From assembly GCF_044647545.1 (NCBI RefSeq), contig NZ_CP172818.1: a DNA stretch of 64,000 bases, one strand, 5' to 3'. Shown one piece after another: positions 7,597 through 61,264 of this stretch. The stretch's first letter is position 1; each line of letters begins with the position of its first letter. This DNA comes from Escherichia coli. GTDB taxonomy: Bacteria; Pseudomonadota; Gammaproteobacteria; Enterobacterales; Enterobacteriaceae. Under the pieces are notes generated by a model. That model did not search any database. It saw only the letters and a list, made by a program, of their open reading frames with translations, and had not been told where the DNA came from. The position numbers and the translations under genes are program-made.

Positions 7597-8871
7597 ATGA
7601 CAGATAAACGCAAAGATGGCTCAGGCAAATTGCTGTATTGCTCTTTTTGCGGCAAAAGCCAGCATGAAGTGCGCAAGCTGATTGCCGGTCCATCCGTGTA
7701 TATCTGCGACGAATGTGTTGATTTATGTAACGACATCATTCGCGAAGAGATTAAAGAAGTTGCACCGCATCGTGAACGCAGTGCGCTACCAACGCCGCAT
7801 GAAATTCGCAACCACCTGGACGATTACGTTATCGGTCAGGAACAGGCGAAAAAAGTGCTGGCGGTCGCGGTATACAACCACTACAAACGTCTGCGCAACG
7901 GAGATACCAGCAATGGCGTCGAGTTGGGCAAAAGTAACATTCTGCTGATCGGTCCGACCGGTTCCGGTAAAACGCTGCTGGCCGAAACGCTGGCGCGCCT
8001 GCTGGACGTTCCGTTCACCATGGCTGACGCAACCACGCTGACCGAAGCCGGTTATGTGGGCGAAGACGTTGAAAACATCATTCAGAAGCTGTTGCAGAAG
8101 TGCGATTACGACGTACAGAAAGCGCAGCGCGGGATTGTCTACATCGATGAAATCGACAAGATTTCTCGTAAGTCAGACAACCCGTCCATTACCCGAGACG
8201 TTTCCGGTGAAGGCGTACAGCAGGCACTGTTAAAACTGATCGAAGGTACGGTAGCTGCTGTTCCGCCGCAAGGTGGGCGTAAACATCCGCAACAGGAATT
8301 CTTGCAGGTTGATACCTCTAAGATCCTGTTTATCTGTGGCGGTGCGTTTGCCGGTCTGGATAAAGTGATTTCCCATCGTGTAGAAACCGGTTCCGGCATT
8401 GGTTTTGGCGCGACGGTAAAAGCGAAGTCCGACAAAGCAAGCGAAGGTGAACTGCTGGCGCAGGTTGAACCGGAAGATCTGATCAAGTTTGGTCTGATCC
8501 CTGAGTTCATTGGTCGTCTGCCGGTTGTCGCAACGTTGAATGAACTGAGCGAAGAAGCTCTGATTCAGATCCTCAAAGAGCCGAAAAACGCCCTGACCAA
8601 GCAGTATCAGGCACTGTTTAATCTGGAAGGCGTGGATCTGGAATTCCGTGACGAGGCGCTGGATGCTATCGCTAAGAAAGCGATGGCGCGTAAAACCGGT
8701 GCCCGTGGCCTGCGTTCCATCGTAGAAGCCGCACTGCTCGATACCATGTACGATCTGCCGTCCATGGAAGACGTCGAAAAAGTGGTTATCGACGAATCGG
8801 TAATTGATGGTCAAAGCAAGCCGTTGCTGATTTATGGCAAGCCGGAAGCGCAACAGGCATCTGGTGAATAA
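7597..8871 (+). CDS. clpX: ATP-dependent Clp protease ATP-binding subunit ClpX
   Basis: 424 aa; N-terminal C4 zinc-binding (CSFCGK...CDEC), Walker A GPTGSGKT. Confidence 0.97.
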
Positions 8872-26141: not shown

Positions 26142-26168
26142 TAACCCTCTCCGCCCGGAGAGGGTTAG
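26142..26168. terminator. Perfect hairpin between convergent ybaY and atl
   Basis: TAACCCTCTCC-GCCC-GGAGAGGGTTA, 11-bp perfect stem; no adjacent U-tract; overlaps atl stop codon. Confidence 0.55.
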
Positions 26169-40088: not shown

Positions 40089-40120
40089 AAAGGGCGACAT
40101 GATGCGCCCTTTATTTTTTA
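40089..40120. terminator. Bidirectional terminator between mscK (+) and ybaM (-)
   Basis: Hairpin AAGGGCG...CGCCCTT flanked by A-run and T-run; overlaps ybaM stop codon. Confidence 0.75.
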
Positions 40121-40282
40121 CTCGCTTTGTGAAGTCTCATCGCTCTGTAACTTCTTTTCATAATCGCGTTTTACAATATCCAGCGCGCGCAGCACGGTGC
40201 GGGCTGGGATCTGATTTTCTTCCAGCAGCACAATTAAATCGACGGCCAGTTTGACATCGTCGGGGGCATTTTCCAGTGACAT
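40118..40282 (-). CDS. ybaM: Small protein YbaM (DUF2496-like), 54 codons
   Basis: Hand-translated minus-strand [57 protein letters not shown]; below the track's length cutoff; occupies the mscK-priC gap. Confidence 0.75.
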
Positions 40283-47113: not shown

Positions 47114-47830
<717 letters not shown>

Positions 47831-47958
47831 TCAAGCCGCAGCAGATCTCTCGGGCAGGTCTGCTCATCCTCCTCAGGCAATACCTCTTACAGCAATTAGT
47901 TCTTCTTCTTCACTTTTCCGCTACAATTATCAACAAGTTGAATCGATAAGAGGCGGTA

Positions 47959-51333: not shown

Positions 51334-51353
51334 GTTATCGACAACCAGAATGG

Positions 51354-51396
51354 CATCCGTAGGCCGGATAAGATGCGTCAGCATCGCATCCGGCAA
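51354..51396. repeat. REP (repetitive extragenic palindromic) element between gsk and ybaL
   Basis: GCATCCGTAGGCCGGATAAGATGCGTCAGCATCGCATCCGGCAATG; typical REP motif GCCGGATAAG...GCATCCGGC. Confidence 0.8.
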
Positions 51397-51409
51397 TGGA
51401 ATCAATGTT

Positions 51410-57051: not shown

Positions 57052-57135
57052 ACACCGTCGCTTAAAGTGACGGCATAATAATAAAAAAATGAAATTCCTC
57101 TTTGACGGGCCAATAGCGATATTGGCCATTTTTTT
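57052..57135 (+). ncRNA. chiX: ChiX small regulatory RNA (Hfq-dependent; MicM/SroB)
   Basis: 84 nt ACACCGTCGCTTAAAGTGACGGCATAATAATAAAAAAATGAAATTCCTCTTTGACGGGCCAATAGCGATATTGGCCATTTTTTT, 5' hairpin plus intrinsic terminator; matches ChiX as I recall it; in the ybaK-ybaP gap. Confidence 0.88.
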
Positions 57136-57928
57136 AGCGCAACATCTGCGGCAAATTCCCTTCTCCATACAGGTGTAGTGCACCAACCGCGACCACATAT
57201 CGCCCCGGCGGCATGGCGCGTAATTTGTCCCGCCAGGCGAGATTTCGCTGATGCATCAGCACATCGTACAGCGACTGACTGAACGTATTAGGCAGCGTTA
57301 TTTCATTATTTTGTGGCGGTGTATTCAGCCACCAGCTCATCATTTGTTGCAGCAACCGTGCGTTGGTGTGCCAGTGGGTCAGCGTATCGTCCAGCAGCGC
57401 CAGTCCGTTGTCAGGGAGCTGGAGCAACATGGCAATCTGGTTTTCTGCCCCTTCCAGTTCAATCACGGGTTTATGTTGTTGCTTCGCCGCCTGCAATAGC
57501 TGGTAATCGATACCGTATTCTGCCCGCAGCCCCAGTTTTTGTGCCTGCGTCGCCTGAAGAACCATCGCGATTTGCCACAGCGGTTGGGTAGAAAAGAGTG
57601 AGGTAGAAATGCCCATCTCCTGGCTAATGTGCTGCAGGTTTTGTAATTGCTCCTCGCTAATGCGCTCTTCCAGCGCCTCGCAGGCAGGCAAATTAGCAAA
57701 AGGCGTATCGCTGGTGGAAACATCCGCCTCGACGATCAGCGCATCGGCGTTTTTGAGCTTTTTGAGCAAACGGGTGGGCAGGGGAGCCATATCGTGGCTA
57801 CCCATATGAATACTGCCGAGCAGATGAAAATGGCGATTGCCGGGAAGAGAGATATCGATAGCAGGCCAGGTGTAATGATTACCGCGCAGCGCGGCCCAAA
57901 GCGTTTTTACCCGATACAACAGATCCAT
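57134..57928 (-). CDS. ybaP: TraB/GumN family protein
   Basis: 264 aa ORF recognised as YbaP; its stop codon overlaps the chiX terminator T-tract by 2 nt. Confidence 0.9.
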   Translation of the reverse strand: MDLLYRVKTLWAALRGNHYTWPAIDISLPGNRHFHLLGSIHMGSHDMAPLPTRLLKKLKNADALIVEADVSTSDTPFANLPACEALEERISEEQLQNLQHISQEMGISTSLFSTQPLWQIAMVLQATQAQKLGLRAEYGIDYQLLQAAKQQHKPVIELEGAENQIAMLLQLPDNGLALLDDTLTHWHTNARLLQQMMSWWLNTPPQNNEITLPNTFSQSLYDVLMHQRNLAWRDKLRAMPPGRYVVAVGALHLYGEGNLPQMLR

Positions 57929-58186
57929 ACGACCTCCCTTTGTGAAATATCATGCTAGCGCGCGGGGAGGGATGGCGCAAATGGAGTTGTTGTCGCACTT
58001 GTGCACAGTGCTTGTGTGCATTACAATAATTAAACAATGGACAAGGAGATGAGAATGGAATGGCTCAAAAGAATAATATAAGGAGTTTTCGTGATCCTGC
58101 TGGCTGATTTTTTTTTCCATTCAACCCCACATCAAAAAATCCCTCTAAAATCCATACCACTTATCACAAAAGTGGACATCATTAAT

Positions 58187-58346
58187 CCCCCCCCTTCTCT
58201 CCGTTTTCCCCCCCCCCCGAAACGAAAAAAAAAGTTTTGGAAAAAAAAAGAAATTTCCCCAAAAAAAAAAAAAAAAAAAAAAAAAAATAAAAAAGGGAAA
58301 AAAAAAAAGGAAAAAAAATTTTTTTAAAAAAAAAAAAAAAAAAAAA
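58187..58346. repeat. Homopolymer-rich low-complexity block (C8, C11, A9, A9, A27, A11, A8, T7, A21) upstream of ybaQ
   Basis: Directly visible in the sequence; composition unlike any other part of the window. See findings. Confidence 0.95.
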
Positions 58347-58379
58347 CATAGCTGTCGTATTGACGAGAAAGGTAAAACC

Positions 58380-58751
58380 ATGAAACAGGCAACAAGAAAA
58401 CCGACGACACCCGGAGATATTCTTCTCTATGAATATCTGGAACCGCTCGATTTGAAAATCAATGAGTTAGCAGAGTTACTGCATGTTCATCGTAATAGCG
58501 TCAGTGCACTGATCAATAATAATCGTAAACTCACCACTGAAATGGCATTCCGTCTGGCGAAAGTTTTTGATACCACAGTCGATTTTTGGCTAAACCTCCA
58601 GGCGGCAGTTGATCTTTGGGAAGTTGAAAACAACATGCGTACCCAGGAAGAATTGGGACGGATTGAAACAGTGGCTGAATATTTGGCACGCCGTGAAGAG
58701 CGTGCAAAAAAGGTCGCGTATATGCGCCACCCTAAAGCAGTGCATCCGTAA
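58380..58751 (+). CDS. ybaQ: XRE-family HTH protein, HigA-like putative antitoxin
   Basis: 123 aa ORF with central HTH (LKINELAELLHVHRNSVSALINN); recognised as YbaQ; start taken from the track, and my recollection of the annotated length (113 aa) is not reconciled with this ORF. Confidence 0.85.
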   Translation: MKQATRKPTTPGDILLYEYLEPLDLKINELAELLHVHRNSVSALINNNRKLTTEMAFRLAKVFDTTVDFWLNLQAAVDLWEVENNMRTQEELGRIETVAEYLARREERAKKVAYMRHPKAVHP

Positions 58752-58759
58752 TGATGTAC

Positions 58760-61264
58760 TTATTCCTTCGGTTTAAATCGCAGCAATCGGTTGGCGTTAC
58801 TCACTACGGTAATCGACGAGAGCGCCATTGCCGCTCCGGCAACCACCGGGTTAAGCAGCGTACCGGTGAACGGCCACAAAATACCGGCGGCGACCGGAAT
58901 ACCAATGCTGTTGTAGATAAACGCACCGAGCAGGTTCTGCTTCATATTGCGCAGCGTTGCGCGGGAAATCGCGAGCGCATCTGCAACACCCATCAGGCTA
59001 TGGCGCATCAGGGTAATCGCCGCGGTTTCAATGGCAACATCACTGCCGCCACCCATCGCAATACCGACATCCGCCTGAGCCAGCGCTGGCGCGTCGTTAA
59101 TGCCGTCGCCCACCATTGCCACCTGACGTCCTTCACTTTGCAGACGTTTGATCGCTTCGGCTTTACCGTCCGGTAGCACCCCGGCTATCACCTCATCAAT
59201 CCCTGCTTCTTTGGCGATCGCATTGGCGGTGGTTGGGTTATCCCCGGTTAGCATCACCAGACGATATCCCGCTTTATGCAGGCGTTGCAGCGCCGCCACG
59301 CTATCACTACGCAACGGATCGCGTACAGCCAGCAGGGCTACCGCTTTCCCGTCAACCGCCAGCAGCACAGGCGTTGCCCCTTGCGATGCCTGAGCTGAAA
59401 TATCTGCCTCAATCGCTTTAGTATCAACTTGCTGGTCATTTAACAGCGCCTGATTACCCAGCAATAACGCATGACCTTCAGCTTCACCGCTCACGCCCAG
59501 CCCGCGCAATGTGCGGAAACCGTTGACCTGCGGCAGCTGCATATCACCTGCTTTATCGAGGATCGCTCGTGCCAGCGGATGGCTGGAACCTTGCTCCAGT
59601 GCCGCCGCCAGACGCAATGCCTGCGCTTCATCAACATCAGCAAACGTTTTCACTGCGACAACCTGCGGCTTCCCTTCGGTCAGCGTCCCGGTTTTATCGA
59701 ACACGACGGTGTCGAGCGTACTGGCGCGTTGCAGCGCGTCAGCGTCCCGCACCAGCACGCCAAACTCAGCCGCCCGCCCGACGCCCGAAATAATCGACAT
59801 CGGCGTCGCCAGTCCCAGCGCACACGGACAGGCAATAATCAGCACCGTGGTGGCAATCACCAGGGTATAGACAATTTGCGGTGCCGGACCAAAGAAATAC
59901 CAGATTGCCGCACTGACAAGCGCAATAACCACTACTACCGGCACAAATACGGCTGAGATTTTATCCGCCAGTTGACCGATTTCTGGCTTGCTGCTCTGGG
60001 CCTGTCGCACCATGCGAATGATCCGTGACAGCGTAGTATGGCTGCCGACCGCACTGGCGCGAAACAGCACACTGCCGTCCTGTACCACTGTCCCGGCATG
60101 GACGCTATCGCCTTCGCCTTTTTGCTGCGGGATTGGTTCGCCCGTCAGCATCGCTTCATCCAGCCACGCTTCGCCCTGGGTAATTTCACCATCTACCGGC
60201 ACCCGATCACCCGTCGTCAGGCGCAGCAACATACCTGGCTGAACATCTGCCAGCGGCACGTTTTTTTCACCTTCGTTGGTGACCAGGCGCGCCGTCGGTG
60301 GGGTTAAATCGAGTAATTTCTCCAGCGCCTTAGAAGAACGCTGACGTGCGCGCGCTTCCAGCATATGACCGAGATTAATCAGACCGATAATCATCGCACT
60401 GGCTTCATAGTAAAGATGTCGCGCTTCCATCGGGAACCACTGCGGCCACAGGTTGACGCTCATTGAATAGAGCCACGCCACGCCCGTACCCAGCGCCACC
60501 AGCGTATCCATCGTCGCTGCACCGTTCAGCAGGCTTTTCCATGCGCTGCGGTAAAAATGGCCGCCGGCGAAAACCATTACCGCCAGGGTTATCAGGCCGA
60601 TAACCAACCACAGGCTGCGGTTGTCGGCGGTGACCATCATGTTATCGCCGATCATCCCCCAGACCATCACCGGGATACCCACCGCCAGTGCGACAATCGC
60701 CTGCCAGCGGAAGCGCTTCATCGTAGCGACGGCGGTTTCTTGCTGGCGCTCGCGGCGTTTAGCGTCATCTTCAATCGCTTCCGCGCCGTAGCCCGCTTTT
60801 TCCACCGCCTGCACTAAATCTTGTGGGGAGGCACTGCCCATCACCAGCGCAGTACGCTCCGCCAGGTTTACCCGTGCCTGAGTGACGCCCGGTACGCTTT
60901 GCAACGCATTTTGTACGCGGGTGACACAGCTGGCGCAGCTCATGCCGCTCAGCAGCAACTGCTGGCTGTCATCGTCATCGGCGGTCGCTGCCGGAAGCGC
61001 CTCAGAAACCGCTGTCAGTGCTTCCGACGGGATTGATGACTCCGCCAGCGGTTTAGCCTTTGGGTGGCTTACAGATGCGTCATAACCCGCTTGTTTGATG
61101 GTTTCGATCAGCTGTTCTGCACTGGCAGTCCCGGTAACGTGCGCTTCAGTGACAGACACATCCGCCTGCTCAACATCCGGGCGCTGTTCGAGACTTTCTT
61201 TCACGCGTTTAACGCAGTGACCGCAGGACAGGCCGTCCAGGGTCAGGTCGATAGTTTGTGACAT
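58760..61264 (-). CDS. copA: Cu(I)-exporting P1B-type ATPase
   Basis: 834 aa; two N-terminal CxxC metal-binding domains (GLSCGHC, GMSCASC), CPC in TM6, DKTGT phosphorylation motif. Confidence 0.97.
61057..61063 (-). promoter_or_regulatory. Candidate copA programmed -1 frameshift heptamer (C CCA AAG) yielding the CopA(Z) chaperone
   Basis: Minus-strand CCCAAAG at codons His-Pro-Lys (HPKAKPL), about codon 69-70, directly after the first metal-binding domain; placement follows the published CopA(Z) frameshift as I recall it. Confidence 0.6.

Follow-up and report, generated by a model that had tools for sequence, protein, structure and literature searches.

Genes of the ybaP–copA region

The window (the whole stretch of Escherichia coli DNA analyzed here, 64 kb) contains, around the locus of interest, the genes ushA, ybaK, ybaP, ybaQ, copA, and glsA in this order, with ybaK on the minus strand and a gap of 451 nt between ybaP and ybaQ. 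A preliminary description of the locus had named an anomalous block upstream of ybaQ and the convergent copA downstream as its neighbors, and both were confirmed, as were the positions and minus-strand orientation of ybaP and copA (Table 1). The small RNA sroB/ChiX was additionally recognized between ybaK and ybaP (57052–57135, plus strand; Rfam RF00368, 82 bits). Its 3′ end overlaps the ybaP stop codon, an arrangement that is the same in K-12.

The open reading frame (ORF) at 58380–58751 on the plus strand runs from ATG to TAA and encodes 123 amino acids as written. Its product was matched by the equivalog model TIGR02607 (antidote_HigA) over residues 6–84 with 105 bits (E 1.4e-30; cut-off 47.7) and carries a helix-turn-helix domain of the Cro/C1 type (PF01381 HTH_3, 43.2 bits, E 4e-11; cut-off 23). 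Furthermore, residues 1–113 are identical to the PDB entry 2EBY, a “putative HTH-type transcriptional regulator ybaQ”. Judged by these matches the ORF is a real gene, ybaQ, with a helix-turn-helix antitoxin of the HigA family as its product, and the XRE/HigA-type antitoxin signature that had earlier been ascribed to YbaQ was right.

Table 1 Features of the ybaP–copA region, with positions numbered from the first base of the window.
Feature	Position	Strand	Basis or remark
ybaP, TraB/GumN family, divergent upstream neighbor	57134–57928	−	ORF; annotated as ybaP in matching genomes
Loss of 1 nt (A) relative to the nearest relatives	57989	+	Coincides exactly with the left breakpoint of the presence/absence polymorphism of higB-1
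Candidate YbaQ operator, four half-sites, GCAC-N4-GCAC-N-GTGC-N4-GTGC	57995–58019	+	Pattern search, conservation
Promoter-like hexamers of the higB-1/ybaQ operon, TTGTGC, 17-nt spacer, TACAAT	57999–58027	+	By eye; tentative
First 12 codons of higB-1, intact, MAQKNNIRSFRD	58060–58095	+	Identical to FDAARGOS_497 and ECONIH1
Rest of the coding sequence of higB-1, garbled and smeared into runs of A and C	58096–58342	+	Colinear with intact higB-1
End of the higB-1 stop codon and 35-nt spacer with the ybaQ ribosome-binding site	58343–58379	+	Identical to relatives
ybaQ codons 1–113, HigA-family HTH antitoxin and repressor	58380–58718	+	Profile matches, 2EBY; DNA identical to FDAARGOS_497 ybaQ
Abnormal 10-codon extension of ybaQ, YMRHPKAVHP, and new stop codon	58719–58751	+	19-nt loss at 58720/58721
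copA, convergent downstream neighbor	58760–61264	−	ORF; annotation in matching genomes

A toxin gene beneath the anomalous block

Positions 57800–58900 were used as a megablast query against 5,426 complete E. coli genomes. The query was covered over its whole length by 1,266 genomes, and each of these has a gene annotated as “type II toxin-antitoxin system RelE/ParE family toxin” between ybaP and ybaQ. In the genome FDAARGOS_497 this toxin gene measures 303 nt, encodes 100 amino acids, and ends 35 nt before ybaQ, and the same holds for ECONIH1. The 100-aa toxin of FDAARGOS_497 aligns with the whole of the PF05015 model (HigB-like_toxin; E 2.7e-32). Save for losses at 57989 and ~58720, the window is identical base for base to both genomes up to 58095 and again from 58343 onward.

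The toxin gene, higB-1, begins in the window with an ATG at 58060, and its codons 1–12 are intact up to 58095, but the frame as written stops after 15 codons. The 247 bases that follow the intact codons are garbled and lie entirely within the higB-1 coding sequence. Identity between the window and FDAARGOS_497, determined per 30 alignment columns along the block, falls from 100% through 90, 87, 87, 80, 60, 67, and 53% to 50 and 60%, and is then 100% again. Exact identity resumes abruptly at 58343, inside the TAA stop codon of the toxin gene, and extends over the spacer and ybaQ. Within the block, the changes are one-sided. A was retained at 101 of 106 positions and G at only 35 of 70; 51 of the 83 changes go to A, and most of the others are lost Gs or replacements by C. 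All homopolymers of at least 9 nt in the window are located inside the block, among them runs of A27, A21, and C11.

In the preliminary description, YbaQ was presented as an antitoxin homolog that no small RelE/HigB-like ORF adjoins. This statement holds for intact genes, as ybaQ is not directly preceded on its strand by any intact HigB-like toxin gene in the window and no intact RelE/HigB ORF occurs between ybaP and ybaQ, but it does not hold for the degraded, colinear remnant of higB-1 that is present there. YbaQ looks partnerless because 58096–58342 is a degraded, homopolymer-smeared copy of higB-1. A profile search of the small ORFs against toxin families, as had been suggested, was run with Pfam on 57879–58381 and returned no match for any of the seven small ORFs in this interval, because the degraded DNA no longer translates; the gene was recognized through alignment of the DNA to relatives. 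One ORF of 78 amino acids (58091–58327) has 19 identities in 30 positions to residues 15–44 of HigB-1 (WP_000057541.1). The further suggestion that the partner gene had been disrupted or replaced at the anomaly proved correct as regards the place of the partner, with higB-1 lying exactly under the block. Replacement does not agree with the colinearity of the block and the toxin gene.

The extreme composition of the block, with a GC content down to 0.11 and an AT skew up to 0.73, is what foreign or low-complexity DNA inserted between ybaP and ybaQ in place of the toxin gene might look like. However, the block is 18 nt shorter than the corresponding toxin segment and stays in register with it, and even its worst 142 nt still align to higB-1 (z = 7.3), with a score that none of 1000 run-preserving shuffles reached. 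Repeats, target-site duplications, and genes of mobile elements were not found either. The colinearity with higB-1 rules such an insertion out for practical purposes, and we assign it a next to negligible probability.

Promoter and candidate operator

Upstream of higB-1, the pattern GCAC-N4-GCAC-N-GTGC-N4-GTGC occurs once in the window and in none of 100 shuffles. Among the fetched loci, 12 have the exact pattern once each upstream of higB, and the toxin-less loci of the K-12 type are all without it. By eye, the motif is kept across 13 enterobacterial loci, and four further loci have it with one mismatch. The promoter-like hexamers TTGTGC and TACAAT overlap this candidate operator, and the −10 position reads TAnnAT in most of the homologous loci by visual inspection. 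A promoter scan tool proposed TGCACA-17-AATAAT at 58002–58030 instead, and the counts from the promoter and terminator scan were no better than those obtained with shuffles.

The higB-1 promoter has been reported to contain the YbaQ motif (Rousset et al., bioRxiv 10.1101/2020.05.25.114553), and YbaQ binds DNA according to ChIP-exo data (Gao et al. 2018). Repression of the operon by YbaQ has been shown in the literature; the present analysis shows the motif and its conservation.

The 3′ end of ybaQ

At ~58720 the window lacks 19 nt relative to its relatives, and this loss takes away the native TAG stop codon together with the lineage-specific spacer between ybaQ and copA. Because the stop codon is removed, YbaQ has 123 amino acids in the window instead of the 113 amino acids found in FDAARGOS_497, K-12, and 2EBY, and the extended gene ends 8 nt from copA. 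The junction created by the loss occurs in one piece in none of the 5,426 complete E. coli genomes and was not found in metagenome contigs. Likewise, the large protein collection that was searched holds no record of a YbaQ of 123 amino acids.

Distribution of the toxin-antitoxin pair

Among the 5,426 complete E. coli genomes, higB-1 is present in 1,266, once in each and always on the chromosome, and ybaQ in 4,833. About 3,570 genomes have a solitary ybaQ and about 590 have neither gene. These counts agree with the published picture of toxin loss, according to which higB-1 disappeared from most phylogroups, including K-12, and from phylogroup D together with ybaQ (Rousset et al., bioRxiv 10.1101/2020.05.25.114553). 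In the CRISPRi screen of the same study, ybaQ was essential in five of 18 E. coli strains, those of phylogroups B2 and F with higB-1 upstream. CFT073, with a stop codon truncating its higB-1, did not require ybaQ, and knockdown of ybaQ caused overexpression of higB-1 in strain S88. Earlier publications have already described the pair itself, its distribution in B2 and F, the dependence of ybaQ essentiality on the toxin, and the orphan state of ybaQ in K-12.

Beyond the complete E. coli genomes, 17 loci that encode a YbaQ relative were compared in GTDB species representatives. Three are flanked by ybaP and copA, and all three are without a toxin gene. All 14 ybaQ homologs outside this context have a higB homolog directly upstream on the same strand; these loci are from Trabulsiella, Citrobacter, Enterobacter, Kluyvera, Sodalis, Erwinia, E. 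albertii, two Escherichia species, and a Caldilineaceae metagenome-assembled genome. The homologous loci support pairing as the probable ancestral state. In four of the 14 loci the higB homolog is truncated (C. portucalensis, Escherichia sp. ESNIH1, Enterobacter sp. Bisph1, and C. koseri), and in E. coli EcPF5 higB-1 is a frameshifted pseudogene beside an intact antitoxin gene. Two ybaQ-type genes are present in the genome of Escherichia sp. E1V33: the copy between ybaP and copA is solitary and apparently frameshifted near its 3′ end, and the other copy, located elsewhere, is paired with a higB homolog. An invariably solitary ybaQ in related genomes had been proposed as the observation that would speak against a lost toxin. 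The survey returned the opposite, given the toxin gene in 1,266 E. coli genomes and the complete pairing in the other genomic contexts.

The K-12-type ybaQ allele is an orthologue with ~97% DNA identity and the same flanking genes. In contrast to the allele in the window, it lacks higB-1 and the GCAC/GTGC operator, its spacer to ybaP measures 137 bp, its promoter region is unrelated, and REP arrays lie downstream. The K-12 YbaQ was called the first solitary antitoxin in E. coli by RASTA-Bacteria. That YbaQ in the window might likewise be a genuine solitary regulator, with no toxin ever at the locus, would be in line with this designation, with the short K-12 spacer, and with the large number of E. 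coli genomes that have ybaQ without higB-1. However, the window has the promoter and operator, the toxin ATG with 12 intact codons, the colinear remnant, and the 35-nt spacer, all matching the toxin-bearing genomes, and its 451 nt between ybaP and ybaQ compare with 137 nt without an operator in K-12. A true orphan was rejected on account of this allele structure, and we regard it as extremely improbable. The notion of an orphan antitoxin-type regulator, which the preliminary description had offered as an alternative, is true of K-12-type alleles but wrong for the lineage of the window according to the alignments.

Further anomalies in the window and their origin

From 994 to 39056, one single nucleotide polymorphism (at 8613) and one IS4 insertion are the only differences between the window and ECONIH1. 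This element is located in ECONIH1 at the site corresponding to ~26150–26160, between ybaY and a gene of the MGMT family, and the window is without it. Between 39001 and 64000, there is no clean substitution relative to ECONIH1 outside the block, and small numbers of bases are missing at five sites (40099/40104, 47846, 51342–51349, 57989, and 58720). By our own count from the gene table, all five losses fall into non-coding DNA, which accounts for 9.2% of the interval. Such avoidance of coding DNA would also be expected from selection on real mutations.

In a three-way alignment with K-12, all six anomalies (the block and the five losses) are located in segments of the lineage that have no K-12 counterpart. 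These are the mscK/rsmS terminator, the adk/hemH spacer, a segment of 15–18 nt after gsk, the left breakpoint of higB-1, the higB-1 coding sequence, and the ybaQ/copA spacer. The losses at 51.3 kb occur in none of the 5,426 complete E. coli genomes, and a garbled 44-mer from the block was not found in metagenome contigs. In the ybaQ–copA, mscK–ybaM, adk–hemH, and gsk–ybaL spacers, K-12 has longer and largely unrelated sequence, with REP-like repeats in most of the four as judged by eye, and this sequence is missing from the lineage of the window. The corresponding spacers in the window (58752–58759, 40090–40130, 47830–47870, and 51340–51400), when compared with K-12, are length-polymorphic within E. 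coli.

The block sets in gradually and ends abruptly, the small differences are always losses and never substitutions, all anomalies are confined to segments absent from K-12, and the tested ones are unique among thousands of genomes. For these reasons we infer that the block, the 19-nt loss, and the four smaller losses between 40 and 58 kb belong to a corrupted record, which may have arisen during sequencing, consensus building, or processing. That the anomalies track the segments absent from K-12 points to a bias of processing rather than of mutation. In the light of these sequence comparisons, the disruption of higB-1 most likely represents corrupted sequence data and not a biological event.

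If the block and the 19-nt loss were real instead, the lineage would have destroyed higB-1 by mutation and left a recently orphaned YbaQ with a C-terminal tail of 10 residues. A dead toxin gene would not be surprising, since naturally decayed copies of it are known from other strains and species; with the toxin dead, ybaQ would be free to drift, and the sparing of coding DNA by all small losses is what selection predicts. We nevertheless consider this unlikely. No known mutational process yields a colinear copy of a gene in which isolated bases are progressively turned into A or into a neighboring base and which sets in gradually but stops sharply and exactly, and homopolymers such as those in the block exist nowhere else in the 64 kb. 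Moreover, clean substitutions relative to ECONIH1 number zero in the rest of the 25 kb from 39001 to 64000 and one in the other 38 kb, the tested junctions were absent from the complete genomes, the metagenome contigs, and the protein collection, and the anomalies follow the segments missing from K-12. A special form of real change, a local process biased toward deletions and toward A that erased the accessory toxin gene and the lineage-specific non-coding segments while sparing the core genes, appears very improbable to us. Such a process would also have deprived YbaQ of its partner only recently and given it a new C-terminal tail.

Comparison with known systems and proposed mode of action

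The locus corresponds to the published higB-1/ybaQ module of E. coli (Rousset et al.), with the same position between ybaP and copA, the same YbaQ residues 1–113, the same promoter and operator, and the same start codon of the toxin gene. It differs from the published module in that the toxin is unreadable after codon 12 and YbaQ is longer by 10 residues, both of which are unique to the window.

The closest solved homolog of both partners is the toxin-antitoxin complex GraTA of P. putida, whose two chains they match (6F8S; toxin 2e-15, antitoxin 4e-10). Like higB-1/ybaQ, GraTA (PDB 6F8S, 6F8H, 6FIX; Talavera et al. 2019, PMC6393540) has the toxin gene first; its antitoxin is an auto-repressing, fully folded protein of the XRE type. 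GraA represses its own operon as two dimers, which occupy a central palindrome and two distal half-sites (Talavera et al. 2019, PMC6393540). The likeness is at the level of the family only, as the GraTA operator is built of TAAC/GTTA, whereas GCAC/GTGC is found here. HigBA of the Proteus vulgaris plasmid Rts1 (PDB 4MCT, 4MCX; ribosome complexes 4YPB etc.) shares the Pfam toxin family and the inverted gene order with higB-1/ybaQ, but is plasmid-borne and far more distant (E about 0.02 for the toxin and about 4e-6 for the antitoxin). The Rts1 HigB is a ribosome-dependent mRNase and serves as a model for the mechanism of HigB-1.

Together, higB-1 and ybaQ constitute a chromosomal type II toxin-antitoxin operon of E. 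coli phylogroups B2 and F, with the toxin gene first and one promoter, located between ybaP and higB-1, serving both genes. YbaQ is a folded helix-turn-helix dimer of the HigA/XRE type. By analogy with the stoichiometry of GraA, YbaQ dimers may occupy the four half-sites that overlap the −35 and −10 elements, which would shut off the promoter. The toxin would be neutralized through a direct complex of YbaQ with HigB-1, as in GraTA and HigBA. Free HigB-1, a member of PF05015 and a homolog of GraT and HigB, is predicted to be a ribosome-dependent mRNA endonuclease with a RelE fold. Taken as a whole, an operon read from one promoter whose toxin is neutralized by YbaQ, with the block and the 19-nt loss as corruption of the record, is in our assessment very probable.

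Implications

Why ybaQ persists as a solitary gene in about two-thirds of E. coli is a published question, to which the window adds nothing. The biology of the locus is of small consequence, and what is unusual about it is solely the state of its sequence, most likely an artefact. Other findings from 40–59 kb of the window should be read with the damaged segments in mind. As a more general caution, an apparent orphan antitoxin can stem from damaged sequence, and such a case is resolved at once by near-identical genomes.
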